A DNA stretch of 63,538 bases, the filler included, from Conidiobolus incongruus B7586 (taxonomy: Eukaryota), in assembly GCA_000697335.1 (NCBI GenBank). It is 7 parts of 7 records of this genome, joined end to end, with 100 filler letters (N's around TTAATTAATTAA, not from the genome) between each part and the next. Parts side by side here need not be neighbours in the genome. Positions count along the whole stretch, not along the records: positions 35,588 to 50,074 come from JNEM01006333.1; 6 more parts are not named here. The stretch is one strand, 5' to 3'. Positions 10,000 through 63,538 of the stretch are shown in pieces (the first letter of the stretch is position 1; each line of letters begins with the position of its first letter). The notes beneath the pieces were generated by a model, which made no database searches, was not told where the DNA came from, and worked only from the letters and a program-made list of their open reading frames with translations. Made by a program: the position numbers and the translations under genes.

Positions 10000-10725
10000 A
10001 ATTTTAACTTAATTTAATAATTTGATTTATGTTTTAATAAAGGATTATATATAAAAATCTAACATTCATCAATTATAGTTATTTAATATTAAAACTTAAG
10101 TTTCTAGTAATGTTTTAATAAAGTTTATTTAACAATAGCTGTTTTAATTTTTTTAAACTTTAGTTAAATTATAAGGTATTTATTTTATATTTTTATTTAT
10201 TAAGTTTAAGCTTTAATATATATAAAATACTTGCAAAACTAATATTAAAATATTTAAATAATTTTTTGATTAAATTAAAAAAATATTTTTTAATATATTT
10301 TTTCATTCTATTAATTATTAAAAAAATAACAATTGAAGTTAGTTTTTTAAATTTTAACAAGTTTTAATTAATTTCTCTTTTAGCTTTAAAATTGTTTTCC
10401 TAATAAAAAATAGTTGATCTAAATAATACTTGATTATTAAAAACTACTTATAAATTTTAAATAATTTTAAAGGGTTTATATTTAAGTTTTACTAATATTA
10501 AAATAAAAAACCTCTAATAATCACTATTTAGTTTAAACATAATTAAATTAAACAAGTAATTTTAAAGAGTTAATTTTTTAATCAAAATATTTATAATATA
10601 TATATATATATAATTTAAAAATATATAATTTCTTATTTACTTTATATATTTATTCATTTAAAACTAATAATATGTTTGAAAAATTAAATATTAAAAAATT
10701 TCCCATTACTTCAAATTTAAGGTAA
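10000..10725 (-). mobile_element. Degenerate mariner transposon, 5' half with left TIR
   Basis: The reverse complement aligns with 62537-63210. It includes the first catalytic-D region (ATA ATT GAT GAA TGT TAG ATT TTT ATA TAT AAT CCT) and the terminus TA|TTACCTTAAATTTGAAGTAATGGGAAATTTTT. Confidence 0.75.
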
Positions 10726-11603
10726 TATAACACCATTTTCAATTTGATTATTCAGAATTAATCTAACTTAAAATATTTAAACCTTATTATTAATTTATTA
10801 AATAGCACTATTATAAACCTTGTATTGCTTTTAAATAATATGTATTTGGAGATGATTAGTTTTAAATATACACAATAGTATACAAATATTATAATTATAT
10901 AATCATTTCAATCATATTTATTATTAAATTTAAACACGATCTTCATTTTACTTTTTTAAAACTTTTGTTCTCTTATAATTCTTAAACTTTGAAATTCAAA
11001 ATATATTAACTTTATATAAGACTTTTTAAAATTTATAAATACCAATTTTGAAAACTTCAATTTTTAGATATATCTATATGATTAATATAAATTTTCAAAA
11101 AATTTAAATGATATTTTATCTATTGTATAGATATCTCAAATTTTGTTAAAAATTCCCATTTTATATCGATTTGATTAAACAAGATGGTTATCAACAATCT
11201 AGTGAACTATATTTAGTATTAAATAAATCCATTGATTATGATATATTTTTAATTAAGAATATGGTTACAATATTGTATAGTATAATAAAATATATATTAA
11301 TTGACAAACCAAGCCAATTCTCAAAAAATTAATATGAATACTTTAATATATGTAATCATTATTTTCAAATCTAAGGTTTAAACCAACGATCAATTGAATA
11401 GAATACCTATTACAAAATCACCCATCTCATCAACTGATAACAATATAGATAAAGATTTGGAAATAAAATATTAGCGAAAATTTTAATCATCAAACTAATA
11501 TCATAAAATATATCATATCAAGTTAATATGATATTCTTAATATTGAATAAAATATTAATACTCACTAAACAACTTCAATCTAATAAAACCAATTCGTTAA
11601 AAA

Positions 11604-24271: not shown

Positions 24272-24803
24272 TTCGACAATTACTACCTGATTGACACCTT
24301 TTTTCACTCCAATTACTTCCCAGTTCCTGATTAACCAAGTTAGGCCTTATTAGCTTTTTCCTGGTTCACGTCCGAGTGACTTCACTGTTGCTCAATTGTT
24401 ACATACTAATGCCTGTATATTTCACTTATAAGAAGTGCTGGTTTCCTCCTTTTTGATTTCTGTCTTTCTTTACCTTTCTCCTTTTTTACACAAATAAATC
24501 TTTTGCCTATTTCCAAGGCCTTACCTTTAGTATATTCAAGCAGTTGCCTATAGTCCACTTGAGTCATCTTCCATTATTCATTCTTCATTTGTTCCTATTC
24601 ATATTTTGTGATTCCATATTTTTAACATGTCGGATCCTAAGGCCACAACTGTTGCTGTTGGTCTAGTCGCTCTTTACAATTCCCTATTTACAAGTGATCA
24701 TTGGTATTTTACCCCAGCTTGTAAGTGCCATGCTTCAAAATCTGCCTACAGAATGGCTGTGTCAATGTCCTCAATGACGCTCCAAGCGCTAATAGCCGTG
24801 ATA
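24272..24803 (+). mobile_element. Solo LTR (family T), 10 bp upstream of tRNA-Glu
   Basis: Colinear with the reverse complement of 53050-53607 along its whole length. TATAAG at 24427, a pyrimidine tract, AATAAA at 24493, end CCGTGATA (GTGACA in the other copy). Flanks are AAAAA/AAAGA. Confidence 0.8.
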
Positions 24804-25229
24804 AAAGACTAACATTATCGTTTAATCATGAAAAATACTATTCATTTCAACTTTAATCCATATTAACTAACAAATACAAACTTCTTAATTTCGAAATTAT
24901 TTTAAACTATTTTGAATTGTACTATTAACATTCAATTACAGCCAAATTCAAGTTTTAATTGTTCATTCAAATTTATTACTGTTTAATCAATTTGTTTTAG
25001 ATGCTAAAATTTGTTTACATTATTTCGTTAAATATTTAAATTAACAAATAAATAATGTAAAGAATTATAGACAAATTTTAACTGTGTATTGTTATTTTTA
25101 AAATTACATATATTATTGTTATTATTATTATAAAAGATGGAGAGATGAATATATTAAAATACTGATTTTATAGTGATGGAATATTTATATTTTGGTCGGA
25201 TTCATTGATTATTACAGGGAAGGTGAGAG

Positions 25230-26913
25230 TTAAATTTTGTAACCAAATTGACTCATAGAATACTTGTAGATTTTGGGTTGTGAATGGTAATCAAACATTA
25301 AGTATTCTATCTCCAAGTTCATCATATCTTCGTCCAATTGCGTCAGCTCTTGATGCGTTGGTAGTTGGTTGATAAGACTAGTATCGAACTGGAAGTTACT
25401 GCCTGCAGATGAACTGGAGGGAGATATTGACGAATTCCTACTAGATAGAGTAAATTTACTCTTTGTGGAAGTGGTTGAAGTAGTCGACAATCTAGCAGTA
25501 TCTATTGTAGTCATCATGGAGAATGACTTCTGACGTCTCTTATTTTTTTTCTGCTGGAATTTGAGGTTTTCATCGAAGATCACATTTTCAATCTCATAAA
25601 TATCATCGTAATTACACTGGTTCAAATCAGGTTCGTACGGCGATTCAATTTCGCGATTGAGTAACGCGTTATTCAATTGTATGTTACGCAACCATGGGTG
25701 ATTCATGAGATTTGATAGGCCATTAGGACCCGCACCCAATCGTTCAGCGGGGTTTTTGCATAATAATCCGGAGAGGAACGATTTGCAATCTTTGGTAATG
25801 CGGGCATTTGTGGGGAATTTTAATTCATTGTATAGAATTGATTCGTACAGGGTTTGACTTCCGCTTTGATCAAATGGTTTCTATTAAAATACATTAATTA
25901 TGGACTCTTTAAAACTACATAGTAATAATTACTTTGCCAATTAGTATTTCATAGAGAGTGACTCCCATACTCCACCAGTCCACAGCTTCATCATAACCGG
26001 ACTTACTGATCAGTTCAGGTGCTGCAAATATAAATATGGTTAAAAACAAAGAACAACGGTTTGAGAAAACAGCGATTACCCATGTAATGAGGCGTTCCAA
26101 CGTGTGCTGTGAGTAAGGGATCTGTGTTTTTATGATAGCATGCTACATTGAAGTCTGATAAATTCAAATAACCTAAAATCGGTGAAATTAATACGATATT
26201 CAGGGATCAATAAACAATAGAATATTACCATTTTCGTCAATAAGCAGGTTGTCAGGCTTAATATCCCTATCATATGATATGAGTCTGATATTGTATATAT
26301 GGCATTGCGTATTTAATTACCTATGAATAATATGTCTAGAATGGATATAACTGATGACTAAAATTAATTGCGAAGTCCAAAATCGTACCACTTCCTCTTC
26401 CGCATTGTCGAATTGTGTCAAAAAGAACCTCAAATCGCCCCCGAGCATCAACTCGGTCACTAGATAAAGGTATTTCTCATCCTGGAATGAGTACTTAAGA
26501 TTAGTCAAGAATGGATGTTGTATCGATTCAAGAATGGATCTCTCCTTAATAACATTGCTGCACGCTTTCATACCAATGATTCTCGACTTATCCATATATC
26601 TTAATGTGAAGCGCTTTCCTGTTACTTTATGTTGCACCATATGAACCTATATAATAATGATTAATATCAACACATCTTAAGAATATACATAATGCATAAT
26701 TACTTTGCCAAAGGTACCCCTTCCAATGGTGTTTAAAATATAAAAATCATTCAAGTTGACTATCAAAATAAGAATTAATACGAATTAGAAACCTGGATTT
26801 GAGTATAAATTACCATGCTTATTCTTCCACTTTTTCCTCTGGTAACTGAATACCATCTTCCTCAAACTACTTTTAAAGTTCCAGGTATTAGGAGTTTCCG
26901 TTGTTGCAGACAT
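25230..26913 (-). CDS. AGC-group Ser/Thr kinase, STK32/YANK-like, multi-exon; beta-3 Lys replaced by Arg
   Basis: IGRGTFGKV, HPFLTNLKYSFQD, LMLGGDLRF, HR|DIKPDNLLID, SDFNVA (DFN typical of STK32/YANK), GTPHYM|APE, VDWWSMGV and an AGC tail SPYEP..NYD. Confidence 0.88.
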
Positions 26914-33900: not shown

Positions 33901-34498
33901 TATATACTAATCAAAAAAATTAAAATAATACTAATAATAGCCAATATATATCAGTTTAATATATATAATATTTTGTAATAAATTATTTCATGAAAAAATA
34001 GTTAAGAATAAATGAATTTTAATTTTATATAGAGTAGATATTAAATTATAGACTATATTATAGAATTATTAACTTGAATGATTTTGAATAATGATAAAGT
34101 TTATATCAAAATATTTATACTCAAAATCCTTGATAAAAAAAGTAGAAATAATATTGATATTTATTATTAATTAATATAAAAGGCAAAGAAATTATAAAAA
34201 TTAAATCAGATTAACTAAACTAGTTCAATAAATAAATTACTCTATCGTTTTCTTATTTTAAAATGTTATTTCCTTTATCTTGCAAATTATAATTGTATTT
34301 TATATTATTTTAGTATTATATTAGTTTTATAATTCTGAATAAAATTAAACCAACTTATAATTTATAATTATTAAATTAAATATATGTAAAAAAATCATAT
34401 CTTTAAAATAAATATTTTGATAACTAAGATTTTATTATAATTTAGCTCAAAAATTTAAAATTCAAAATATAACTTTTTTAAAAATTTATAATAATATT

Positions 34499-34874
34499 TG
34501 TTAAAAGACTAGTTCTCTAAATTCTTACATATATTCATTTATAATTCAATTGACTATAAATTATATAACTAATTTATACTTTTATAAGTAAATTAACTTT
34601 ATTAATAGCATTGAAATATTTAATAAACAAGGTTCCTCTTTTTTCTTTTAATTTTTATAATCTAATTTTTTTATATTATTTCTTAGGTTAAAACTATATT
34701 ATATTAATATTATAGCATATTAGCACTACCTGATATAAATCCTAATATACTAGTGACTCATTTGTGTTTGAAGCTTAATTAAACTTTGTTTACATTTCCA
34801 TATTATATTGCCACATTATTTTAATATTAAGTCTTCCTTTATATTATTTTGGTATTATTACCATTATACTGATA
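34499..34874 (+). mobile_element. Solo LTR (Gypsy family G)
   Basis: Starts TGTTAAAAGACTAGTTCTCTAAA and is homologous to the copies at 46764, 49448, 57118 and 61960. Flanks are ATATT/ATATC. Confidence 0.8.
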
Positions 34875-35099
34875 ATATCTTTGATAATTTGATTAAAATT
34901 AAATTTAAAAATCAATTCATTTCTTTGAAATATATTGGTTTCTAATAGCAAATATTATTTGAGCATTATTTATTTTGTTTTAAATATTAATCAACAAAAT
35001 TAAACTATTTAATATTAAGTTTTTTAATTTATCCACTATTTTTCTTATTTCCAATTAAAGTAATATTATCAATTTAATATAGTTTTCAAATGTTATTTA

Positions 35100-35487
35100 T
35101 TAGTGCAGAAATTAAGTAATGGCACAATTTTAAAATTAAAATTAAACAAATAAATTAATAAATAATATATAAAAATTAATGAATAATATAAAATTAATAG
35201 CCTCCTTTATTATTAATAACTCTTTTCTATACTTTTGGTAAGCTTCTAATACCTAAAAAACAGTTCTTTTTATTAAGGACTGAAATTTGATGTTTCACAA
35301 ACCAATTTAATTTGTTTGTAGGAATTTTTTTTCCTGCAAGCTGTTTTTTTAATTGTCTAAAACAATTATAATCATATAGATTATAATCAGGTGAATATAC
35401 TAGATGTGGTAACTCCCCCCAATTTTTTTTATATAAAAAATCTTTTACAGCTTTAGCTTTATGTATTTTGCAATTATCATGCAAAAT
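35100..35487 (-). mobile_element. Mariner (DD34D) transposase C-terminal fragment with right TIR, cut by a gap
   Basis: LHDNCKIHKAK...ELPHLVYSPDYNLYDYNCF has 34 residues between the second and third Asp. Terminus TA|TTAGTGCAGAAATTAAGTAATGGCACAATTTT. Confidence 0.88.
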
Positions 35488-38400
35488 NNNNNNNNNNNNN
35501 NNNNNNNNNNNNNNNNNNNNNNNNNNNNNNNTTAATTAATTAANNNNNNNNNNNNNNNNNNNNNNNNNNNNNNNNNNNNNNNNNNNNGTTATCATTATTT
35601 AATCTTCAAATTAAACTGAATTATTAATAAATTTTATAATATTTTTTTAAATATAAAATTCTTTTAATATAATTTATCAATAATTATTACTCTATCAGAT
35701 AAATATAAAATATATATAAAGTTATAACAAATTTTGGAATTTTAAATGATAAGATAAATTACCTGATTTAATATATTCAATAGATTATAGCATATAATTA
35801 TAATTACTTTAGGTAATTAAAAAAATCAATTTTTATGAAAGAAAATTTTCATAAACAAATTTAATTGGTTGATAAAATATTAAATTTCGATTTAAAGAAT
35901 TGTTGTTGATTGTTAAAGGTTTGCTAAAAATATAAGAAAGCGTGATTAATAATAAAAGAGAGAGTTGATTTTGTATTATAAATTTATTTTTCAACTTATA
36001 TATTAAAATCTCTTTTCTTTTCTAATCTTGAAAAATCCTTATTATTTAAAAAATTTAAGTAAAAATTGGGTTATTCAAAATATAGTTTGAAAGATTTTAT
36101 AGTTAATTTAAATAATATCATCAAAATTAAATGTAAATTAGGTGAAATAATTAGCGTTATCAAATAAAAATCAAATTTTTTCAAATTTGAAAATCTACTA
36201 TCATATTTCAAAAGTTATAAATTATATAAAATTAATTTAAATAGCTGTACCAATCATTGATTATTATAGACTATTTATTAAATATATAAAAATATATTTT
36301 CCCTAAATGTGGTAATATCCAATAATTTATCTTAATTGAACTTTATTGTATAACTTTTTTTCCCAATATTATTCGATAATATAAATTTTCTGATCTCATA
36401 TATATTGTATTTTTAAATTTACTCAACCTATTTAAATATAAAATCGATCAATGATGTGTTGAAAATTATATATTAAGTCTGAGATGCAATGCCTCATCCA
36501 ATAACATAAATATGCTCCTTTAGCAATTGAATTTCAAAGTATCTATGAATTAATATTCTTAAAATATATCTTAAATTTGATTGAATACAAATGATTTCAT
36601 AATTACAAAATTAAGTTGAACCTGATCTATTTGCAAAATATCGATCAGCTCAATGCAAAAAATTCGATTGAAATGGAAATCATTAATATCCCAAATGGGT
36701 TTTTAATTGAAATTAAATTAGGATTAATAAAAGTTGATTGGTCCCACACCAAAATTGACTTTACTTCTTTATATAGATTATCTATTTACTAAATTTGTAA
36801 ATATCAAATATATTTGAATTATACAGTGTTTAAATTAAAATTAAGGTAGTATAGCTGAATTTAATGATATATATATTTATTAAAGATATTATATAACATC
36901 TATAAATCGACTCTGGTATTTTCCTATATTCCTCTATATCTCAGATTTATTAATATCTCAAACTTAATAAAACATTAACAATTTAATATGTTTAAAATTA
37001 TTAGTTAAATTGTAATATTCACCTCATCAAATTTTTAATTAATAATTTTCGATCGTTACTAATTTTTAGGATCGCCCAAAATGAAAACCATTTATTAGGT
37101 TTAATCGTAATTAAAGAAGATTTAAATATGGAATTTATCCTCATTTATGCTTTGATTAGAAACTAATCTCAAAATTATAGAAATAATTAAATTACTCATT
37201 TACCTTTGTTAGAGAAAAGCCTCTTAACAGTTTGCTGAACCTAGTCAGAGTCATTACTTTTTAATCGAAATTATATTTATTTTAAGACTTTATATTATAT
37301 AGTATACCAAAATAGTTTTTTCATATTAAAATAATATTCTAATAATTGAAACAATTAATTTAAATTCATTTTATCATTCTTATGTCATTTATCTACTTTA
37401 TTTTAATCCTCAAAATAACTCTAATTCCTTGATAAATTTAATAATCCAATTAACCAACTGAATCAAAAATAACAAATATTTAAAATTAATTTAATATCAA
37501 CTTTACAGCAATAATGTTCAACATTCATTATTAATAGGAACTGTTTTGGATTACTTTAATTAGTACTTCAAATTAATCAAAATATATGAATGATTTTTAT
37601 AATCAACAGTTCTTTATTATAAGATATTTAGTTAAATAAAAATCATCATAATTTTGATATATTTCACAATATATCATGTTTGCTAAAAGCATTCGAGTAT
37701 ATCACAATATTATCATTGTTCATAAATATAATAATAAAATTGAATATGTAAAAATACTTAGTATACTAAAGATCATCCCAGATTTTCAATTTAACAACAA
37801 TAAAACAGTTTGGAATACTTGATTTTTTAAGCTTTCAAAGCCCCAAGAATAACTTTGGATAAAAAATCTAATGACGTAGTATCTGGAAAAATAATTAACA
37901 ATGAACTTGAAATATATTCTGCAATGAATAATTTTACTAATTTAATAACAAATGATAGCTAGAGTGATTTGAGTAAAGAGCTGAAAGCACCATATTCACA
38001 TCATATTATTACCAAATTGTAAAATTAAATACATTATCCTCAATCAATATAATATGGATAGATAGACTATCAAAAATAAAATATATTTGAAATTATTTCA
38101 AACTAAATATTTCTAATATGCAAGCATTAAATATTGTGATAAATATTAAATAAATAATAATAATATATAACCGCAAAATATTTTGAGATATATCGGTTAT
38201 CAATATTATATTCTAATAACATATCAAAGCAACGTATAAACATAAATCAATATTAGTTTGATAAGTTACAATTTCAAATTATCAAATTTGAATCAAGAGA
38301 TCAATATAATCAATTTAGATCGAAAACAAATATAAAATATTTAAATATATGAAATATTTCTACATTTTAATACCCGATACAACGGTTGGAGCCCTAAAAG

Positions 38401-44800: not shown

Positions 44801-46763
44801 CTTAAATCACTTTATTTCAATGGCAAAAGTAATTAGAGTTTAATATCTTAGATTTTTAAACCATTATCAATTGGCCTAAACTTATAAAATTCCAAGAAAT
44901 AATTCAGATAAAAAATTTTATTCCCTTTGCCCCTTTTTGAACTTAAAATTTTATACCCTCCCATTTGAACAATTGAATAGAATATACCTGAATTTTATTG
45001 GATAATAAAAAAATTTTTTTAATATGAAAATTATAATTAATTAAAAGGGTTTTATAATTTAATTTTTTTTCGATCAATTGATTCAAATTAATTTTATATG
45101 AAATTATATGAGACAAATACTAAATTGAATTAATATTAAAATTAAACAAAATTTCTCAAATCAAACTATATTGAAAGAGTGAAGTTTATTGACTTAATAC
45201 TATCTCAAATATAGTTATTGAATATACAGTACTTATAAGTAAAACATATATTATAGAGCCCCAAAATTAATATTGCTGACCACAATGCAGTACAAGTGGT
45301 CAAAGAAGAGAATATATTTTTTCATTGGATTCATAACTTGTTTGGTAAAAGAGATAATTGACAAAAGGATTTTAATTGGCAATAGAATAATCAAGAAATC
45401 TAATAGTTTATCGATTTAGTATTTGATCATAATTTTCGATTTAGTTTTGCTAGAATTTTAATTTGAATCAGTTGATTTAATTTAGAATTGCTGTTATTTA
45501 TTGGTTTATTATTCAGTTATTATTTTAGTTAATTTGAATTATTACCTAATTTTTTGATTGAATCAATTTTTGAAATTGTTTTCAGACATTTTATGAATCT
45601 GTATCAGTGTATTTTAATATTTTCTCTAAGTATTACAATGAGATTTCAAATAAACCTTTAGTTATTATTGAATCAAATCCCAAGCTCAATTGAAAATTTA
45701 TTTTTTATTTTTTTTTCAATATCAAGTTTGTTTATTTTTAATATAATATAATTTAATAATATTAATAAAATTAATAATTTAACTATTATAGTTTGTTGAT
45801 AATAATAAGACCAAATATTATTGGATTATAAACAATTTGCTTTATTCACTCTATTCTTTGCAATATCTAAGCGACATTTTAACTTTCGTTTATTTAAGTT
45901 TTATTATATAAATATAGTTCTAGTATTTCCAATTAAATTCAAAATAAACAATTTTCGAATAGATTCATATTAAATAATCAATTCATTACACTCCCTTCAG
46001 ATAAATTATATAAAAAAATTTTTCTATTATTCAAGAATAGAACTAATGATTCTTAATTATTCATAAATATTAAATATTCAAAGTTAGTCACTCTACTTTA
46101 ATTATATAGTAGTAAAAAAATTATGAACAGTAGATAAAAGTTATTTTGGTCATAAATATTATAAAATCGCCTAACTTTATTCTAGTGTAGTATAGTGAAT
46201 TAATCCAAGCATTCTATCGATATTTGGACATAAATAAATTTAATAAGACCAAATATGTATATATGTCAAAAATTACAAAATTTCTTATATTATAAAGGAT
46301 ATTAGTTTATATATATATTTCAAAAATTAATATAAATTATTATATTAAAAAAATAAAAGTCAATTAATATGTTTTATATAATTAACCTAATTTAATTAAT
46401 TTTTAATTGAAAATAATATAAAAACAATTATTTATGAAAATAATAAATAAAAATATTATAATATTTGAAAAGTATTTTTATAAAAGATTATATTCAATAT
46501 ATTGATATTTAAAATATATATTTAGAAATAATATTAATTTTAATCAGACTTTCAAAATATTATAAATTTTTTATTAAAAATCCATACTATATATAAAATA
46601 AAATTTAAATTAATAATTTATTTAATTAATAAATATTATTATATTTTGATAATAAAATATTATTCATATAATTACAAATTATTTGTTATTTTTATAATTT
46701 AGTATATATTATCAAAAAATTTAATATTTTATTAAAATTATTTTTTATCTAATTATAAGATTA

Positions 46764-49447
46764 TATTAAAAGACTAGTTCTCTAAATTTTTATATATATT
46801 TTCCTATAATTTAATTAACTATAAATTATATGATTAATTTATACTTTTATAACTAAATTAATTATATAAATAATATTAAATTATCTAATAAATTAGGTTC
46901 TTCTTTTTTTCTGTCAATTCTTACTATTTTTTATCTTTTTCACTATTTCTATGATTGAGACTATATCTTAGTAGTATTATAGTATATTAGCACTACCTAA
47001 TATAAATCTTAATATATCAGTGACTCATCCCAGTTTGAAGCTTAATTAAATGTTATTTACATTTATACACTATAGCTATATTATAATATTATATTTTATG
47101 TTATATTATTTTTATATTATTTTTATATTAAATTTTCCTCTATATTATATTAGTATTTACCACTATATTTATATAGTAATAGTAATAAAATTATTAAAAA
47201 CTATTTGAAATTAATAATTACCTATATTAAATTTATTTATTATTATTTTAAATCCTATTTATAACTTATTTTATTTTAATTTAATATTATACATTATAAT
47301 ATCTCTAAAAAAAGAAATACCCTTATATTATTTTAATAATAATAATAGCTTAATTACTAAGTGAATCTAAGACTTTAGTCTTTAAAAGCTTATTACCCTC
47401 TAAAAAACTAATATTAAATAACTTTTGGTTAAGAAAAACATAGCTTCAAAAGTTTAAATCTAACAAACCAGTTATTTCATTACAGTTAATATATTAAACT
47501 ACCTTTTTAATATTTTTAAAAACAAATTAACCATTTATAATAGATTTAAAAACTTTTATAAGCTTGAAAACTATCTTAAAAATATAAAAAATGCCTTAAT
47601 TTAATTCCTGATGAAGATTTAAAAAATATCCTTAAATTAGTTATTTTTTTAGAAAAACTTATTTATACTCAGTATTTAACTTATTACAAGCTTAATCCTA
47701 AAGAGTTTTTAGGGGGATAACTTATTATAAGTATATAAACCTTTAAATAATTGGAAAAAGTTATAAAAAAAAGGTATTATTTAAAAGATTAAGTTTAATT
47801 AACAAGAGAAAAGCTTTCTTAACTTAAATAAAAAACTTTTATAAAATAATTGATTGAGAAATTCAATAAGATATATTTAAATATATTAAATATCACTAAA
47901 GAAGAATAAATCCACAACCTATTATAATATCTTAACTTTTAAATAAAACTTTAATTAATTAGCAAGGAATATATTGATAATATGTTTTTCTCTAATATTT
48001 ATAATATAACAATTATAATTGATAATATCTTTTACTCTATAACTAAATTTTTTATCTTAAGGATTACTCTTTTAAAATTTATTTTAACCCACTTAAATCT
48101 TAAATGATAAAAGTTTTTGCTTTAAAGCTTTATAAAAAAATTATTAATAAAAAAGTTAAAGCTTATTTAAAAATAAATAAAGGTTGTTATTATAGCTAAA
48201 GGATATAAATTAATTATAAAATTGATAAGTATCTTCTCAAAAGGTAATATCTATTTAATTTTCAATAATCTTAATTTACCAACTATAAATTAAACTTGAA
48301 TAATATTAATATCACCTTAAAATTACCTCTTTCATAATTAATTAACAGATTTTAATTTAATCCACAAAAATTTTAATAAACTAATGATTCTACAAATTAA
48401 ATTATTTATACTAAAAAGATTTAATTAATTAAACTACTAGAAACTAAAAATATTTTAGTAACTAATTTACCTTGTAATTTTTTACCTTTAACTATCACCT
48501 TGTTATTTTTTTTAACTAGATATTTTATAGATATACTTGTTAATATATTAATTAACTTTAGTTGTTTTAGTTATATTATCTCTTCTTTTATTGTTATAGA
48601 ATTATCTTTAGTTATTTAAAAAAACAGCTTAATAATTAAATATGCTAATAATTTAATAAAATAAACATTTAATATTATATCTAAATATTTATTATTATTT
48701 TTTAATTACTCTTAATATATTCAATTCATAATTAGTAATATAAGTTATAATTTTATACTAGGTTAAAATTAGTTTAAATATTATAGTTTTTTATCTATAA
48801 ATATTATTATAAAAGGTTACAAATCTATTTTTTTTATATTTTAAAAGAAATTAATAGAATTAATCTTAAAAAATTTATATTACCTTATTATAAAACTATC
48901 AAATATTTTATTTAATACTAAATTTATAATTATCTCAAATAATGTTATTATTGTAAGTAAAAACAAATATAAAAAACTAATTAAAAACCTTAATAATTTA
49001 TAAAGATATATATTTGTTTATTATTTATCTATTAATACTTTATTTGTTAATTTCAATAAAGTTATAACTAATAACTATTTCTTATATAATAAAGTAAGTT
49101 AATTTATTAATGTTTTTAAACTTCTAAGTAAATTACCTTTAAAACATAATATTAAATATAAAATTTAACTTCTCTTAAGTATACAACTATATTTAAAGTT
49201 TTTTTATCATTTATCTCTAAAATAATATCAAACTTTAAAAGAAGAAATCTAAAAATTATTTGAAAATGAATATATTAAACCTTCTTCCTTACTATAAAAA
49301 TCTCTTATTTTCTTTGTGTAAAAGGATAATGATAGTTAAAAATAATATATATATAATTGTGTTTTAAAGTCTAAAACTGTTAAGGATAAAACTTTATTAT
49401 TAAACCTATATGATATTAAAGATAAAATATTTAAATCTATTATATTC
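46764..49447 (+). mobile_element. Highly degenerate Ty3/Gypsy LTR retrotransposon (family G): 5' LTR 46764-47173, eroded PBS, gag-pol remnant up to the start of RT
   Basis: The LTR is homologous to other G copies and is followed by TAGTAATAGTA (eroded TGGTAGCAGCA). 49200-49430 reads YHLSLK*YQTLKEEI*KLFENEYIKPSSLL*KSLIFFV*KDNDS*K..YNCVLKSKTVKDKTLL, matching the Gypsy RT start (I.PS.SPW.SP.FFV.K.DG..R.C.DYR.LN..T.KD..PLP). Confidence 0.85.
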
Positions 49448-50074
49448 TGTTAAGAGACTAGTTCTCTAAATTCTTATATATATTTTTATATAATTTAATT
49501 AACTATAAATTATATGATTAATTTATACTTTTATAACTAAATTAATTGTATAAATAGCATTGAATTATCTAATAAACTAGGTTCCTCTTTTTTCCTCTCA
49601 ATTCTTACTATTTTTACTTTTACACTATTTCTAAGATTGAGACTATATTCTGTTGATATTGTAGGATATTGGCACTACCTAATATAAATCTTATATATAT
49701 TTTTATATAATTTAATTAACTATAAATTATATGATTAATTTATACTTTTATAACTAAATTAATTGTATAAATAGCATTGAATTATCTAATAAACTAGGTT
49801 CCTCTTTTTTCCTCTCAATTCTTACTATTTTTACTTTTACACTATTTCTAAGATTGAGACTATATTCTGTTGATATTGTAGGATATTGGCACTACCTAAT
49901 ATAAATCTTAATATATCAGTGACTCACCCTAGTTCAAAGCTTAATTAAACTTTGTTTACACTTGCACACTACAGCCATGTTATATTACCATGTTCTGTGC
50001 CACACTACTTTTATATTAAGTCTTCCTCTACACTATATTAGTTTAACTACCACTACACTTATATGGTAGCAGCA
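49448..50074 (+). mobile_element. Younger family-G 5' LTR (49448-50063, with an internal 217-bp tandem duplication) plus PBS, nested in the RT of the older element
   Basis: Starts TGTTAAGAGACTAG, with TGGTAGCAGCA at 50064-50074 directly after the LTR (initiator-Met-type PBS). The sequence then runs into a gap. Confidence 0.85.
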
Positions 50075-50973
50075 NNNNNNNNNNNNNNNNNNNNNNNNNN
50101 NNNNNNNNNNNNNNNNNNTTAATTAATTAANNNNNNNNNNNNNNNNNNNNNNNNNNNNNNNNNNNNNNNNNNNNTTATATTATAGAGTTAATTAATATAT
50201 AAATAAATTTTTTCAAAAAGGGATTTGAGTATTTTAATATTATTATTATTTAAAATGATAATTTAAAATAAAAATATTAGTATATATATAATTTAGTAAA
50301 AAAAAATTTAAATAATTATTGTTTTATATACCTTTTTAACTTATAAGCCTATAAATTTATAATTCATCTTATTTAAAATTTAAGATTTAATATATTAAAT
50401 ATAATTAAATAATATGTATTATAATCAAATATTATATTTTAATTTAAATAAATTTAGTTAAGAATTTTTTAAATTATTAGTAAATATATAAGGGACTTTA
50501 ATTTTATTACTTATTTTTGCAAGTTAGTATATATATATATATATATTTGGTAAATTATATATTATTTTTGATTTGAGGATAAATTAATAATAATAATTAT
50601 TTTAATAAATTTTTATATTTGATTAAGTATTTTATTTAAGATAAATATGACTTCAAAATACAATACATGAAAAAATTATTCTATTGCAATAATTTAAGCT
50701 ATTATATACAAAATGTAAAAGTATCATTGTATTGATTCAAAAATCTGAAGCCAATTATTTCTAATTTGTCCATTTTATAAGAAATATATCAATAACCTCA
50801 ATATATCAGTCATCATTTTCTCAAGTGAAATTATTTTGTTAATAAAATATAGATTATTATTAAATATTTTATTAATGTAATCAATAATCAAATACTGCAA
50901 AATATATATACTAAGTGATAATACAAATTATTAATAGTATCATCAATTCATTTATTATCACAAATAATATATT

Positions 50974-53039: not shown

Positions 53040-53049
53040 CTATTTGAAT

Positions 53050-53607
53050 TGTCACGACTATTAGCTCTTGCAGCGTCATCTAGGACACTGACACAGCCAT
53101 TCTGTAGGCCAGATTGTGAAACATGACACCTACCAGCTGGGGAAAACAACCGATGATCAGGTCTCTGGCTATTTGGCCTTGATCACTTGTAAATAGGGCT
53201 TTGTAAAGAGTGACTAGACCAGCAGCAACAGTGGTGGCGTTGGGATCCGACATGCTAATAAGATGGAATTGAGGAATATTAATAGGAATGAACTTAGAAA
53301 GAATAGTGTAAAATGACTCAAGTGGGACTATAGGCAGTTACTTGAGTATACCAAAAGGGCTGGTTTTGGAAGTAGGCAAAAGTTTTATTTGTGTAAAAAA
53401 GTAATGTAAGAGAGTGAGATCAAGAGGAGGAGACAAATCCTTCTTATAACTAAGTGAAATATATAGGCATAAGTATGCAATAGCTGAGTAACAGTGAGGT
53501 CACTCTGATATAGACTGGTAAAAGTTGATGAGGCTTAGTTTGGTTAATCAGGTACTTAGTAGTGAATTGGAGTGAGGAAAGGCATCAATTAGGTAGTAAT
53601 TGCCATG
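53050..53607 (-). mobile_element. Solo LTR (family T), 10 bp upstream of tRNA-Ile
   Basis: Homologous to 24272-24803 in the opposite orientation, with TGTCAC at 53050 and a perfect flanking TGAAT duplication at 53045-53049 and 53608-53612. Confidence 0.82.
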
Positions 53608-55511: not shown

Positions 55512-55994
55512 TTACATGCCATTCATAATTTCCGAAGTTAATTCATCGGCATCATTGGGTCCAATTTGTTGTTTAGCAGTCGCAACTGAAGAGAGCAATC
55601 TTCGGACGAGAGTGTCGTGGGGACCTTCGTGACGTCGGTTTAATTGAGAAGCTCTTCTGCGGTGTCGTGCGTGGCTATTGTGACCTCCATTATGGCCGTC
55701 GTGACGATCTTCCTGTCGACGTTCCAAGGAAATGGATCTTTTGGCTTTTGCAGTGTCGTGGGGACCATCGTGACGTCTACTCAATTTCTTGGCTTTGCTG
55801 TTGTGGTGATGGTGGTGATGGTGATGGTGGTCGTGCTGTCTGCGCTCAAGGTTTACAGATCTCCTGGCAATATTAGTATCGTGAGGGCCGTCATGACGTC
55901 TGACCAATTCAGCGTCTAGCTTATATGGTAGTGAGTGAGCTTCAGTAAAGATCAAATTAAAAATCAAACTCAACAAAATAGTTTTAAATTGCAT
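55512..55994 (-). CDS. Secreted His-rich Kex2-processed repeat protein (KEP-like peptide precursor)
   Basis: Signal peptide, multiple RR/KR sites, three H[DE]GPHDT units, two S(V/I)xLERR spacers and a His9 tract. Confidence 0.85.
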   Translation of the reverse strand: MQFKTILLSLIFNLIFTEAHSLPYKLDAELVRRHDGPHDTNIARRSVNLERRQHDHHHHHHHHHNSKAKKLSRRHDGPHDTAKAKRSISLERRQEDRHDGHNGGHNSHARHRRRASQLNRRHEGPHDTLVRRLLSSVATAKQQIGPNDADELTSEIMNGM

Positions 55995-56402
55995 CCTGAT
56001 ATTAATAATAAATATATTATAATTTTCTAGTCTACATATTCATTGTAATATATATAATGATGTTGAGACAATTGAAATAAACTAATAGTTGAAAAAAGTG
56101 TGGGGTGAATTTAAGATAATCCAATTATTTTAAACATTGAACTTGTGCAATCAATAGATTGTCAATAGTGGTCAACACAATTGATCAATTCTACGTATCT
56201 GGCGCATACCCATATTTCAATCAAGCTATAAATCTTAATATAACAAATTAAGAATTAATCTAATTATATTTAAATATTGAATCACCAAAACACTTTTAAA
56301 TCCAATACAATATCCCATAATAATAAAAAAATCATTAATTGAAAATATATAAATCCTCAATTTAAAATCAAATCAATTTAAAAAAAAGGCTTTTTTCTTA
56401 CT

Positions 56403-56930: not shown

Positions 56931-57030
56931 NNNNNNNNNNNNNNNNNNNNNNNNNNNNNNNNNNNNNNNNNNNNTTAATTAATTAANNNNNNNNNNNNNN
57001 NNNNNNNNNNNNNNNNNNNNNNNNNNNNNN

Positions 57031-57792
57031 AATAATAATAAAATATATAAAATTATAAAAGAATTTATATATAAATAACTAGATAATATTTCCATATATA
57101 ATATCTTTAATATATTATATTAAGAGACTAGTTCTCTAAATTCTTATATATACTATATAATTCAATTAACTTTAAATTATATGGTGAATTTATATTTTTA
57201 TAATTAAATTAATGATATAAATAGCATTGAATTAGATAATAAACAAGGTTCCTCTTTTTCTCTCAATTCTTATTATTTCTTATTTTTATATTACTTCTAA
57301 GTTTGAAACTACATTCTGTTAATATTATAGTATATTGGCATTATCTAATATAAATCTTAATATATCAGTGAATTATCTCAGTTCGAAGCTTAATTAAACT
57401 TTGTTTACATCTGCACACTATATCCCATGCTACCTCGCCATGTTCTGTGCTATGCTACTCCTATATCAAGTCTTCCTTTGCATTATATCAGTATTGTACC
57501 ACCATGTTTATATATTATATCCTATATAAATATTATTATTTTAAATACTTAAAGAATATAATTATAAAAAAATTCCTTCAAATAAATGAAATTTGTTTAT
57601 AAAATATTAAATTTAAGTTTTTAATAAAAAACTATTATTAAAATGTTAAAATATGTTAAATTTATAATAAAGAGTTAATTATAATAAAAAAATATTAATT
57701 TTATATATTATATTAATTTTTTTATATTATACATAAATAAGTTTATTTATTTTTAATTTTAAAATTATACAAATATTTAATTTTTATACTAA
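57031..57792 (+). mobile_element. Degenerate mariner 3' part interrupted by a solo LTR
   Basis: 57560-57794 aligns with the reverse complement of 35098-35335, ending AAAATTATACAAATATTTAATTTTTATACTAA|TA. 57031-57050 resembles eroded DNCKIHK codons. Confidence 0.7.
57118..57512 (+). mobile_element. Solo LTR (Gypsy family G) nested in a mariner
   Basis: TATTAAGAGACTAG start, homologous to other G LTRs, with flanking TATTA/TATTA. Confidence 0.82.
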
Positions 57793-58833
57793 TATTTTAT
57801 AATAATAAGCCTATTAACAGAATTTGCTTTATTGTAATCATTATTATAATTGACTAATATATATTAATAAGTTTTTAGCTTTTAATTTCTTATTTTTTTT
57901 AAACTGGTTCCTAATAATTAATAATTTTAAACTAATTAAATTAATATTATATTATATAATAAGTTTTGTAAATATGGTTATTAGAAAAGTACTTATAATA
58001 TGAATTAGTAAATGATTTATTAATCCTACTCTTTAATATACTGGGATTGTATGTCTTAAAACTTATTGTTAAGAAGTTATAGTAGAATATTCAAAAAAAC
58101 CCTTTTCTATATTTATCACTTCTAAGTTTAAATAGTTGATTCAATGAAAAATATAGGATTTGGTTAAAATCTCACTAAGAGAATAAAGAGAAGAAAGAGT
58201 ATCATTTAATTATAGAATGATAAAGCCATTATATTTGAGGGATAAAATGGATTTAACTACTAAATTAAGACAGATGGGTATTTTCAAAATACAGCATCAA
58301 TAATTAAACAATAAATTTAAATTCCGAAAATGCATACCAATTTAAAAATAAATTTTGAAAAATATTGATTGGAGATTGTTTTTTAAATTCTAATTTTGTT
58401 AGACTCATATTATCATTAATAGCATATGTTTATCTATTATTTTTCTATCATTTTATGAGCAAAATATTTAAAACTTGAATCAACCATTAACTATACATAG
58501 ATAAATTACTATATTAATGATATTTTTAAATCATTTAAAAGTATATATGATATATACTTTTTCTTCTTGATACCCAATTCTAGAAAATCTAATTGAACAC
58601 AACATTTCTTGCATTAGTAATCAAACTGAACAAAAATATTATATTATTCAAGAATCCCATAATTATAGAATAACTATTATTAATTTCAAAAAGATCACAA
58701 TAATTTTTAAAAAAATACAAAAGGTCTAGATACATAAAATAATTATTAAATATAATATTTTAAATTAAAAATTTTTTTGAAATTATTTAAATAGATTAAA
58801 TATACATTAAATCCTATCTTTACCATAAATATT

Positions 58834-61443
58834 ATGTCATCTTTAGATCCTATAGAATTATTACAATGGAGTTTTATAACTCAACAAAATATGCCAGTAC
58901 TAGATTCTGATATATCGAAATACGAACTAGTTAACGAATTGAGTTCTTTGTTAAAAGATGGCAAATTTTTTGAAATTATTTCTAATCCTGTATTTAACTT
59001 TGTATACTCTCAAATCCCTGCCGATGAGAGTATTAAGCAAATTGCTGATAGTGTGAATAAGGAAGATGCTACCATTACCGAGACTTACATCCAGTTGAAG
59101 GCTTACCAGCTCCACATCAGCGGAGCCATTAAGACCTGGGTCAATGAAGATAATATCCATCACATTTTGATGTTGATTTTGGGTATTGCTCTACTAAATT
59201 TTTTCGTTCAAGTTGGTTGGACAGGTCCCGAAATGAGTAAGGAGCAAGCTGGAGAACTTTCACAACTTTTCAAAGTGATTTACCCTAATCCAGAAGATTT
59301 TTCTGCTAAGAGATCCAATACAACTGATGCTATCCTTAGAGATTTTTCTGTAGAGGGTGAAGATGCTTACCATTTGACTTTATATCCTGCTATGTTGTGG
59401 TATTCTGAAACTATTTTGAGTGTCCTGGCCCCCCTTGGATTGGCCAAGAGCTCTAACTGGTGGTTAAGCCGTGCTTTATTTTTCAAGCAACGTTTATTAG
59501 ATAACCCTACCGAAACTTTGAAAAATACTATATATAACCTTTTGAAACCTTTTATTGATTCTTTACCCACTTTGGAGCCCACTCATCCAGATTTTGAATT
59601 ATTTTCCGATTTGGGATCTCGTCTCTGGATTGAATTGGGTCTTCACAACCATTTATTTTACCAAGATCAACAAGCTGTTGAATGCTACGATCGCTCTAAA
59701 GATTGGAGTGGTCTCGAATACCAGATTACTGGTGCCCTGGGTAAGCGAACCAAATACCAGCAAAGAGATATCAGTCAGCTCGTTTTGTGGGCTAAAAGTA
59801 GAAAAGCTGGCGAACAAACTGAAAAACCCAAGCTTCCAGAGACTCTCCCATTGAATGATGATACCCTTATGGAAAATATTAAATTTGCTGAAAATCAAGA
59901 AGATGAAGAATTCCAAAAGGAAATTTCTAATCCTTCCTCTTTGGCCAAGATTGATCAATGTATCTTGTTGGCTTACTGTCTCAATATTAAGAATACTAAC
60001 CCTGATCACGGTATTACCAACGAACAGATGTTCCCATATGTCACTAGAGTTTTAGCTCATCCCAACAACTGGATGATTCATACCATGGGTTTAGTTTTGA
60101 GATCTCGTTTGGAAAGCACCAAATCCAGAACTGTCGAAAGATCAGTATTCCAATTACAAGCTTTAGTTGATCAATGGAATGTTACTGACTCTCAAGTCAC
60201 TGAAAGATTGGAGCATATCCATTCCCTCTTACTCCCATCTAAATGGGAAATGGAAAAGGAACTCGCTGAAAGATTCATGTCTCTTGGTATCATCAGATCA
60301 GCTCTTGAAATTTACCAAAAGTTAGAATTATGGGAACAAGTTATTAACTGTCACTTGATGCTTGAAAAAGAAGATCACGCCATGGCTGTGATTGAAGAGC
60401 AACTTGCTATCAATCCCAACTCTCCCAAATTACTCTGTCTCAAGGGTGATGCTACCGAAGATCCTACATGGTACCACCGCGCTTGGGATATTTCTGGTCA
60501 GAGATACTCTCGTGCTATGAGATCTCTTGGTAGCTACTACTTCAAGAAGGGTGAATACAACTCGTCCGTTGGTTGCTTCATGAAGGCTTTGACTATCAAT
60601 CCTCTCTTCGAACACTCCTGGTACCTTTGTGGATGTGCTGCCATGCAATGTGAAAACTATGAAATTGCCGCTCAAGCTTTCCGTCAAGTCATTTCCATCG
60701 ATGACGAAAATGCTGAAGCTTGGAACAACTTAGCTTCCATTTACCTCAAGATTAATCAGAAGAAGGAAGCCTTCCTCGCCTTCAAGCAAGCTTTAAAGCG
60801 CAAATACGAAAACTGGAAGATCTGGACCAATTACATGTATACCAGTTTGGATATGGGGTATATTGGCGAAGCCATCCGCGCCTTTGAAAAAATCGTCGAT
60901 CTCAGATGGAAAGACGCCAAGGAAGCTTGTGTTGACCAGGAAATTTTAGGTATTTTCATTAATGCTGTCCTCAACGACACTCCCGACGCCAAAGGTCAAG
61001 GATCTGCTAGATATGCTGCTCAGCTGGAGAGTTTGATCAAGAACACGATTTTGACGAGAATTGTCGCAGATGCTGGCATTTGGAAGCTGTATGCCAAATT
61101 GTTGCTCAGTAACAAGCGTTATGCCGAAGCTTTGGACTGTCAGGTTAAAGCTTACAGAACCATCTCCCATAAAGCTGACTTATTGACCAACCCTGTATCC
61201 TTCCAAATCGTCAGTGAAAGTTTAATCGAATTGGTCGATAGTTACCAGAGCTTGGGATCTCAGCCCAACCCCACACCAGAGAACCCTGACGCTGTAGTAT
61301 GCCCCGACTGGAACTATCAATCCCGCATGCTACTACGAAACTTGATTGCCAAGACTAAGAACACCTACGAAGGGGAACATCACCACAATTTGTTGGTCAA
61401 TGCTTTAGAAGAGTTGCCTCCCGCCAACAAAATTCAAAAATAA
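58834..61443 (+). CDS. EMW1: TPR-repeat protein, TTC27/Emw1 family
   Basis: ITGALGKRTKYQQ..ISQLVL, LNDDTL, NWMIHTMGLVLRSRLES..SRTVERS..QLQALVDQ and TPR repeats (AEAWNNLAS, ENWKIWTNY). Confidence 0.92.
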   Translation: MSSLDPIELLQWSFITQQNMPVLDSDISKYELVNELSSLLKDGKFFEIISNPVFNFVYSQIPADESIKQIADSVNKEDATITETYIQLKAYQLHISGAIKTWVNEDNIHHILMLILGIALLNFFVQVGWTGPEMSKEQAGELSQLFKVIYPNPEDFSAKRSNTTDAILRDFSVEGEDAYHLTLYPAMLWYSETILSVLAPLGLAKSSNWWLSRALFFKQRLLDNPTETLKNTIYNLLKPFIDSLPTLEPTHPDFELFSDLGSRLWIELGLHNHLFYQDQQAVECYDRSKDWSGLEYQITGALGKRTKYQQRDISQLVLWAKSRKAGEQTEKPKLPETLPLNDDTLMENIKFAENQEDEEFQKEISNPSSLAKIDQCILLAYCLNIKNTNPDHGITNEQMFPYVTRVLAHPNNWMIHTMGLVLRSRLESTKSRTVERSVFQLQALVDQWNVTDSQVTERLEHIHSLLLPSKWEMEKELAERFMSLGIIRSALEIYQKLELWEQVINCHLMLEKEDHAMAVIEEQLAINPNSPKLLCLKGDATEDPTWYHRAWDISGQRYSRAMRSLGSYYFKKGEYNSSVGCFMKALTINPLFEHSWYLCGCAAMQCENYEIAAQAFRQVISIDDENAEAWNNLASIYLKINQKKEAFLAFKQALKRKYENWKIWTNYMYTSLDMGYIGEAIRAFEKIVDLRWKDAKEACVDQEILGIFINAVLNDTPDAKGQGSARYAAQLESLIKNTILTRIVADAGIWKLYAKLLLSNKRYAEALDCQVKAYRTISHKADLLTNPVSFQIVSESLIELVDSYQSLGSQPNPTPENPDAVVCPDWNYQSRMLLRNLIAKTKNTYEGEHHHNLLVNALEELPPANKIQK

Positions 61444-61621
61444 TCACTTTGTAAAAACTTACCCCAATATTTATTATCATTTCAATCCATTACATTTTTT
61501 AGCATAACCTTTTTGCAAATTTTTATTAAATAATAAATTATCATTTCAAATATTTAAATTTTTTATCAAAGTAACCAATATTGGAATAACTATATTCTTT
61601 TTATCTTGAAGTAATATGTCG

Positions 61622-61900
61622 TTAATACAGAAATTAAATAAAACAATTGATATATGTTTATAAAAATTAATTCTCTTTATTATTAATATTTCTTGACTAT
61701 ATCTTTAATAAGCTTCTAATACTTAATAATTCTTTTTATTAAAGACTGGAATTAAATATTTTATAAAGTGGTTAAATATAATTGTAAAAATTTTTTCTTA
61801 TAAATATATTTTTTGATTACTTAAAATAATATTTATTATATATGTTTTAATTTAGATTATATATTAAATTTGATTATTTTGAATTTTTTTTATTTTTATT
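61622..61900 (-). mobile_element. Degenerate, internally deleted mariner 3' end
   Basis: TIR-like TTAATACAGAAATTAAATAA, and AAGCTTCTAATAC...TTTTTATTAAAGACTG matching 35240-35283. The inner boundary is approximate. Confidence 0.6.
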
Positions 61901-61959
61901 TTTAAATATATTATAAAATTTGAAGAATTAATTCTATATGATATATAAGGGAATTAATA

Positions 61960-62323
61960 TATTAAAAGACTAGTTCTTAAAATTTATATATATATTCCTA
62001 TATAATTCGTTTGATTATAAATTAATCAATTTATTAATATTTCAAAGATAAATTAATTATATAAATAATATTGAATCATCTAATAAATTAGCTTTTTTCT
62101 CTCATTTTTTATTTTTTTATTATTTATAAAATTAAGACTAAATTCTGTAAATATTATAATATATTGGCATTTATCCTAATATATCAATATTGACTCATTT
62201 ATTTATAAAGCTTAATTAAACTTTGTTTATATTTCCACATTATATTGTCATGTTTTGTATCACAACACTTTTATATTAAGTCTTTCTTTATATTATATTA
62301 GTTTATTCATTATTATACTTAAA
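61960..62323 (+). mobile_element. Degenerate family-G LTR
   Basis: TATTAAAAGACTAGTTC start and the shared AAGCTTAATTAAACTTTGTTTA block. No clear TSD. Confidence 0.75.
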
Positions 62324-62536
62324 ATATATATATATATTAATTTTTAAAAAAAATAGTTAATTGATAAAATAAATATTTTATATNNNNNNNNNNNNNNNNN
62401 NNNNNNNNNNNNNNNNNNNNNNNNNNNTTAATTAATTAANNNNNNNNNNNNNNNNNNNNNNNNNNNNNNNNNNNNNNNNNNNNTTAATAATTATTTATTT
62501 TTAATTTAAATCAAATTATATTAAACTATATAAATA

Positions 62537-63538
62537 TTATCTTAAATTTAAAATAATGGGAAATTTTTTAATTTCCAATTTTTCAAATATATTATTAATT
62601 TAAAATAAATAAATATATACAAAGTTAATAAAAAATTAACTTTTTAAAGTTAGTTATTTAATTATCCTTGAATCAAATAGTAATCATCAAAAGTTTTTTA
62701 TTTTAGTATTAATAAAACTTAACTATAAGCTTTTTAAAATTATTTAAAATTTACAAGTAGATTTTAAAAATAAAGTATTACCTAAATCAATAATTTATTA
62801 CTAGGTAAATTACTTTAAAGCTAAAAAAGAAATTATCTAAAACTTGCTAAAATCTAAAAAATTAACTTTAACTATCATTTTTTTAAATATTAATACAGTA
62901 AAAAAATATATTGAAAAATATCTTTTTATTTCAGTTAAAGAATTATCTAAGCATTTTAATATTTGTTTTATAAGTATTTTATATATATTAAAGTTTAAAC
63001 TCAAATAAATAAATAAAAATATAAAATAGGTAATTTATAATTTAATTAAAATTTAAAAAAAGTTGGAATAGTTAATATTAAACAAAACTTACTAAAATAT
63101 TAATAGAAGCTTAAACTTTTACATTAAATAATTATAATTGATGAATCTTAAATATTTATATATAATCCTTTATCAAAACATAAATTAAGATATTAAATTA
63201 AGCTAAATCAACCCCCTTTACAAATCCTTTTAAATAAATATTTTTTAAATAAGTGAATATTAATCATTATAATAGATTATAATATTATATGTTATTTTTA
63301 CTTAGTTCCTGAAAGAAAATTAATTAATAGTAAACTCTATATTAATTTTTTTAAATAAAAGTATTTTTAATTAATGTTTTAAATATAAATTAAGAAAAAT
63401 TATTATTATGCATAATAATTATAAAATATATAAATTTAAAACTATAAAAAACTTTCTAATTAGAAATAACTAGAAAAAACTATTATATCTAGTATATTCT
63501 TTAGATTATAACCTATATAACTATAATTGCTTTAGGCA
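62537..63538 (+). mobile_element. Degenerate mariner, left TIR through the catalytic domain, truncated by the window end
   Basis: TA|TTATCTTAAATTTAAAATAATGGGAAATTTTT, IIIIDES*IFIYNP at ~63128-63170 and MHNNYKIYK...LVYSLDYNLYNYNCFR at 63408-63536. Confidence 0.8.

Follow-up and report, generated by a model that had tools for sequence, protein, structure and literature searches.

The transposon copies in this stretch of Conidiobolus DNA raise a simple question: have they been eroded by a RIP-like process of directional C-to-T and G-to-A change, as the first-pass annotation proposed, or by a general AT bias and CpG decay? RIP acts between fertilisation and meiosis, depends on a methyltransferase of the RID/Masc1 class, and targets repeats of whatever nature, given a length of at least about 400 bp and an identity of at least about 80%. 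In Neurospora crassa it runs via RID and DIM-2 pathways, as laid out in the available part of bioRxiv 10.1101/115501. The window, by which we mean the whole stretch of 63,538 nucleotides that was analysed, consists of seven pieces and six 100-base gap linkers (9900-62483), in each of which a 12-base linker with stops in all frames is flanked by 44 N on either side.

The window encodes a glycogen debranching enzyme (GDB1) and a TPR protein, the gene of the latter being used both as a taxonomy marker and as a composition control:

58834..61443, plus strand: EMW1-like TPR gene, single-copy

The TPR protein shares 85% identity with its counterpart in Conidiobolus coronatus, and the next match, from Entomophthora muscae, stands at 52%. 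A quick 18-row tree, for which 17 rows were picked from 120 listed matches, makes it sister to C. coronatus with 100% SH-aLRT, within the Entomophthorales. Taken together, the identity and the tree placement identify the host, on protein-sequence grounds, as a Conidiobolus of the Entomophthorales and not a member of the Dikarya, which is the case that the earlier reading had singled out as the one of interest. The genes retain the normal GC content that was claimed for them (0.39-0.42). Fourfold-degenerate sites have a GC of 0.36-0.48 against 0.19 in non-coding DNA, a large gap. Among the window's ORFs of at least 100 aa, inspected by eye, no methyltransferase of the RID/Masc1 class was seen, and Rfam found only two tRNAs. 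At 55512-56039, on the minus strand, lies a small, probably secreted protein whose His-rich repeats between dibasic sites (RR/KR) look by eye like those of a peptide precursor.

The signal is strongest in a long Ty3/gypsy element, of whose family three solo LTRs also lie in the window:

46764..47173, plus strand: 5' LTR of the eroded Ty3/gypsy element; ends TA...TA, GC 0.16, no CpG
47174..47184, plus strand: eroded primer-binding site; four of four differences from the copy at 50064 are G>A or C>T
47185..49447, plus strand: dead gag-protease-RT start; GC 0.149, CpG 0, CpA observed/expected (o/e) 0.57
49448..50063, plus strand: second LTR, less eroded; GC 0.25 in 49686-50063
50064..50074, plus strand: intact primer-binding site; assembly gap directly after
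34499..34874, plus strand: solo LTR of the same family; flanks ATATT / ATATC
57118..57512, plus strand: solo LTR of the same family; 5-bp target duplication TATTA
61960..62323, plus strand: solo LTR of the same family; heavy erosion

The LTRs, the primer-binding site at 50064..50074, which we take to be of the initiator-Met tRNA type, and a Ty3-related RT place the element in the Ty3/gypsy class, though the RT part matches only the Ty3 RT structures 4OL8 (E 0.005) and 7Q5B (E 0.017) in a search up to E=10, and these E-values are weak. The gag and protease are presumed from their motifs. Pfam returned no family for eight readings of the interior (two of them in the wrong frame), a homologue search with the RT piece and a phage tblastn were blank, and no metagenome contig contained an exact match to an LTR 22-mer. 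Read in frames picked by eye, the interior has 46 stops in 590 codons, 43 of them TAA, and the residues left to it include one Trp, one Met and three Gly.

The LTR at 49448 cuts the RT, has a primer-binding site directly after it and has no target duplication in common with the first LTR. For these reasons it probably represents the 5' LTR of a nested element of the same family rather than the cognate 3' LTR, though the contig end may instead be an assembly mosaic. The LTRs at 46764 and 49448 were rejected as a cognate pair for dating. Within the second LTR, close to the contig end, there is a 217-bp tandem duplication (49469-49902; 216/217 identical), either a recent event or an assembly artefact. 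The DNA beside the element (46300-46699) and across the gap (50175-50699) has a GC of 0.07-0.11; with few C left there, these flanks are possibly older relics or the result of mutation spread.

The direction of change can be read from the two LTRs. The pair of 16-mers quoted from them is present as described (near 49989 and 47089) and differs solely by C>T/G>A, and the two versions of the primer-binding site were likewise found, at 50064-50074 and 47174-47184. Over 360 gap-free columns the LTRs differ at 53, of which 38 have T/A in the 46764 copy for C/G, 5 the reverse, and 10 are transversions (directional p=2.5e-7). Both strands are affected, with 25/60 C and 13/26 G lost, and the pooled pairs are similar; the directional C:G>T:A excess and the both-strand mutation that characterise RIP are both present. 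The wider statement that homologous copies differ mainly by C>T and G>A holds for this pair but not throughout, since the transition share over 17 copy pairs runs from 0.35 to 0.81, with its minimum in the most degraded mariner pairs, in which many changes are A<>T. The proposed conversion of LTR termini from TG..CA to TA..TA also stands in one half: two of the five copies start with TG and three with TA, as TG>TA would have it, but CA>TA has to be assumed, because four copies end in TA, one in AA and none, the least eroded included, in CA. LTRs of this family may have non-canonical TG...TA termini.

A second, unrelated class of transposon is represented by seven Tc1/mariner-type pieces:

35090..35487, minus strand: Tc1/mariner-type transposase end, least eroded copy; 86 open codons
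17300..17983, minus strand: mariner copy, eroded
35590..36040, plus strand: mariner copy, eroded
57513..57810, plus strand: mariner copy, eroded; GC 0.07
61625..61870, minus strand: mariner copy, eroded
62520..63538, plus strand: mariner copy, eroded; 5' part and transposase
10003..10728, minus strand: mariner 5' part, eroded

The transposase at 35090..35487 matches Pfam DDE_3 at E 1e-4, short of the curated cut-off of that family, and has 274 homologues at E<=0.001; a separate homologue search with the mariner piece was blank. LTR and mariner pieces are grouped in three clusters (34300-36040, 57030-57850 and 61600-63538), each by an assembly gap. The codons cited as an example of mariner erosion do read HDNCKIH in one copy and HNNYKIY in the other. 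Polarity was examined against 150 transposase homologues, at mariner sites that differ by C/T or G/A with a change of residue: in 35 of the 46 cases without a tie, the residue more frequent among the homologues is the one encoded by the GC-richer codon (35 v 11, p=5e-4), a result to be read with the caveat that the profile was queried with the GC-richest copy, and that the AT-richer codon wins 9 v 4 where the GC-richer residue is in another copy.

The sequence context of the changes was scored in six pairs with the GC-richer copy as reference. The pooled losses amount to 87/131 at CpA, 21/44 at CpC, 65/155 at CpT and 1/2 at CpG, the pairs not being independent and two copies being used twice. 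The changes thus extend beyond CpG, as had been claimed, with 173 of the 174 at non-CpG sites. A preference for CpA, as in RIP, is present (87/131 v 86/199 for CpC and CpT combined, p=5e-5); it is moderate, and the loss of CpG is more complete. Variable columns of the multiple alignments give 18/18 for CpG, a class defined partly by the variation itself, 92/103 for CpA, 48/58 for CpC and 110/143 for CpT. The 5' neighbour has no influence (0.43-0.50 for all four bases). The Ty3 interior has no CpG in 2273 bp, where 12 are expected from base content, and a CpA o/e of 0.57 and CpT o/e of 1.46; non-annotated DNA has 0.56 for CpG, 1.11 for CpA and 0.89 for CpT. Depletion of CpA is weaker in the mariner pieces (0.83) and the solo LTRs (0.94). 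In simulations from three surrogate ancestors, the best fit had about 1.3-1.45 hits at each CpA, 0.45-0.75 at each CpT and 0.15-0.45 at each CpC. Decay at CpG only left 129-157 CpA per kb and decay at equal non-CpG rates left 54-57, against the 36 observed, and both schemes were excluded on this ground.

It is worth pointing out that non-coding DNA in the window is itself AT-rich (GC 0.19; 0.17 in 11 heuristic intron candidates), and low GC alone therefore proves nothing; the dinucleotide signature does. The same spectrum in single-copy DNA would have spoken for a general AT bias, but it is not genome-wide: CpA o/e in non-coding DNA is 1.11 despite its GC, against 0.57 in the Ty3 interior. The ratio of CpA to CpT is 0.39 (82/210) in the interior, about 1.2 in non-coding DNA and 36/37 in the intron candidates (p=9e-20 and 8e-4), the last being weak evidence as at least one of the 11 heuristic candidates lies inside the GDB1 frame. 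The ratio is 0.31-0.51 in eight 400-bp windows within the element, 0.84-1.78 in eight windows on its left side, and never below 0.94 across 160 overlapping non-transposon windows. The composite RIP index exceeds zero in 7 of 63 kb-windows, every one of them overlapping transposons; it is negative in 4 of the 11 transposon-rich ones. With the sharp edge of the element and the controls within the window, the signal shows the confinement to repeated DNA that is typical of RIP. We are highly confident that the pattern is real, specific to transposons, and more than a general AT bias or CpG decay.

The family was also examined in four runs of a single sample, from which the stretch itself may derive; their contigs were mapped to 46700-49680 at 80% likeness. 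Variable places comprise 692 transitions v 99 transversions in run X1 and 659 v 98 in run X3, a ratio of 6.7-7. A control stretch made up of a tRNA gene, the tRNA-adjacent repeat described below and a kinase gene has 148 v 67 in X3 (p=4e-9 against the element). Per C/G site, transversions are at 0.042 in the element and 0.036 in the control (A<>T changes 0.025 and 0.015) and transitions at 0.57 and 0.08, a 7-fold difference, in a comparison that sets 14,436 records against 244 in X3, uses a 5% threshold and includes coding constraint in the control. When the C/G places of other copies are counted, the GC of the element rises from 0.153 to 0.287. Among 40 listed places, out of 849 difference rows, at which the stretch copy differs from nearly all others, 36 start at A/T, and since 22 of the 36 are transversions, transitions do not dominate the background mutation. 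From three runs that carry the same species label, the control stretch received 0, 0 and 2 records. In X3, the single-copy DNA at 25100-26700 occurs at a depth of about 1:1 in two versions that diverge by 8-10% (31 differences over 322 nt and 27 over 330 nt), which may reflect a highly heterozygous diploid, a heterokaryon, a hybrid or a duplicated genome.

One repeat in the window behaves differently and served as a control:

24277..24801, no strand assigned: tRNA-adjacent repeat; GC 0.38, CpA loss absent
53049..53602, no strand assigned: second copy of the tRNA-adjacent repeat; GC 0.40

This 530-bp repeat adjoins a tRNA-Glu gene and a tRNA-Ile gene, in opposite orientations and with a spacing of about 10-16 nt to the 5' end of each gene; additional copies occur in the sample. 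An element with a preference for inserting at tRNA genes may have left it behind as a solo LTR. Its GC is 0.39, its CpA o/e 1.17 and its CpG o/e 0.29. The two window copies are 76% alike and have no CpA loss; they may be young or constrained. Variable columns amount to 10/18 at CpG and 12/58 at CpA, and this contrast points to a general CpG layer on repeats and to a second, distinct layer outside CpG from which some repeats are exempt. The sparing is accounted for most simply by chromatin targeting, and tRNA genes are barriers to heterochromatin; short length, low identity or youth could let the repeat evade true RIP.

The spectrum of the changes, their direction, their occurrence on both strands and in both element classes, and their confinement to transposons were all observed directly, and in its output the process is RIP-like. 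The account we favour, one that may equally well hold or fail, is that transposon copies were riddled after insertion by a chromatin-targeted mutator linked to a methyltransferase, the enzyme itself being a prediction. A cytosine methyltransferase of the DNMT1/DIM-2 type would mark the chromatin of silenced transposons, and the marking would leave C-to-T changes behind, striking both strands, sparing no CpG and favouring CpA over CpT and CpC. One layer would consist of CpG methylation and decay on repeats generally, the tRNA-adjacent repeat included, and a second would be a non-CpG, CpA-preferring mutator acting on the Ty3 and mariner families. Targeting would go through chromatin state and not sequence pairing alone, and sex would not be required, by analogy to the mitotic Dim2 mutator of Zymoseptoria. 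That mutator offers a precedent for Dim2-dependent mitotic C>T change at CA, and DIM-2 has been reported from early-diverging fungi (available parts of PMC8016269, PMC7862722 and PMC11258239). The same sources also provide arguments to the contrary: the Zymoseptoria mutator strikes CA in more than 98% of cases and spares CG, against the mixed spectrum found here, and 5mC in the Zoopagomycota is described as scarce (PMC11258239, in the portion available). The weak CpA depletion in solo LTRs and mariner pieces and the negative RIP index in some transposon-rich kb-windows also count against this mutator, and the spared repeat is known from two window copies that may be young or constrained.

True RIP is the next best account, and we consider it rather unlikely. 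Here a RID/Masc1-like enzyme would recognise duplicated DNA through pairing around the sexual stage and mutate CpA (and CpT), with CpG decay coming from a maintenance methylation of its own. The signal does set in sharply at the left edge of the element and is strongest in this long element, and the order of CpA over CpT fits Botrytis and Sclerotinia, while CpG plus CpA fits Tuber; across 10 genomes, CpA/CpT signatures were tied solely to RID-class genes (PMC4352252, in the part available). The DIM-2 branch exists within Neurospora RIP itself (bioRxiv 10.1101/115501, as available), and Entomophthoraceae have two-domain methyltransferases that are sister to RID at 12-14% identity, for which the accessible text of PMC11105155 declines the label of RID homologue. 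Against true RIP stand the moderate CpA preference, with CpG hardest hit, and the multi-copy 530-bp repeat without CpA loss. The versions of single-copy DNA some 8-10% apart, with 11 transitions and 9 transversions among 20 listed sites, weigh against it on the sole condition that they are paralogues. Documented cases of RID/Masc1 are described as confined to Pezizomycotina (PMC5751038), and a survey of 1,239 genomes gives RIP-like signatures in ascomycetes only, with C. coronatus and seven other Zoopagomycota, eight of eight, scored no_rip (available part of PMC12543289). Chytrids have neither RIP nor RID according to PMC6572847, which gives motif VI as QT/ET in RID-type enzymes, as opposed to NV.

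It is quite improbable that the low CpA was inherited, from active lineages already poor in CpA and CpG or from subfamilies split by transitions, with only ordinary decay afterwards. Such a history would suit the least eroded LTR, which has no CpG and ends in TA, and no intact full-length copy was seen; it is opposed by the one-way change between the LTR copies, the many stops and the scarcity of Trp, Met and Gly, the conserved transposase residues lost through C>T/G>A, and the same bias in an unrelated DNA transposon. Slightly less probable still is a general AT mutation bias with CpG deamination, by which transposons would simply drift to the non-coding equilibrium. The GC of non-coding DNA and intron candidates is indeed near the 0.15 of the element, but the CpA/CpT ratios part them, the simulated equal non-CpG rates leave too many CpA, and transversion density is equal in element and control while C/G transitions are far more frequent in the element. 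An APOBEC-like cytosine deaminase with retrotransposon cDNA or exposed single strands as its substrate, least probable of all, would explain the broad non-CpG context but not the about equal losses on both strands, the effect on a DNA transposon or the indifference to the 5' neighbour. Of the alternatives that the first-pass annotation had offered, a RIP-like process or broad non-CpG methylation or deamination, the directional, transposon-confined change beyond CpG stands and deamination of this kind fits poorly.

The pattern can be set beside several known systems, each as described in the available part of its source. Like RIP in Neurospora crassa and other Pezizomycotina (bioRxiv 10.1101/115501), it shows C:G>T:A change on both strands, in repeats only and with a CpA preference, leaving stop-riddled, AT-rich transposon relics with a positive composite index. 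Unlike it, it is found outside the Dikarya, has lost its CpG, prefers CpA moderately and spares the tRNA-adjacent repeat. With the Dim2 mutator of Zymoseptoria tritici (PMC8016269) it shares C>T change in transposons with CpA down and TpA up; however, the restriction almost only to CA, at more than 98% with CG spared, is not seen here, with CpG at 0 in 2273 bp and losses of 65/155 at CpT and 21/44 at CpC. The closest match in spectrum is with Tuber melanosporum (CpG and CpA) and Botrytis/Sclerotinia (CpA and CpT), in which the transition/transversion ratio is above 2, as it is in Conidiobolus at the family level, but these are ascomycetes that carry RID-class genes (PMC4352252). The TpCpG hypermutation of Pucciniomycotina (PMC3318451) is likewise a repeat-associated C>T change outside the Ascomycota with loss of CpG, while the changes in Conidiobolus lack the 5' T preference and any other 5' bias and are mostly non-CpG (173/174 pooled).

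The nearest report in phylogenetic terms is an index-based one, which puts RIP in Zoophthora radicans at 24.2% and in three relatives at 2.4-5.7%, with "major caveats" (available part of PMC11105155). It concerns the same order and suggests RIP-like activity outside the Dikarya, but it uses a dinucleotide index only and covers other genera, with Neoconidiobolus outside its RIP analysis, whereas the result presented here is alignment-based and includes polarity, context and in-genome controls. This hedged report, as far as its accessible text goes, is the sole one we found that runs contrary to an ascomycete-only RIP. No alignment-based report for Conidiobolus was found in the openly accessible literature, and per-species methyltransferase counts are absent from the supplements of PMC5751038 and PMC11105155.

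In this close relative of C. coronatus, then, the signature is borne out at the alignment level, in two unrelated transposon classes and with internal controls. A RIP-like process can go unnoticed where non-coding DNA is already AT-rich. It is doubtful, though conceivable, that a homology-sensing, CpA-preferring RIP operates in the Entomophthorales through a RID-like or an independently recruited methyltransferase. If it did, RIP-type defence would either predate the split of Zoopagomycota and Dikarya or have evolved twice, and transposons could escape it by inserting next to tRNA genes. How repeat-directed mutagenesis arose in fungi, and whether RID or sex is needed for it, can now be tested by sequencing alone.
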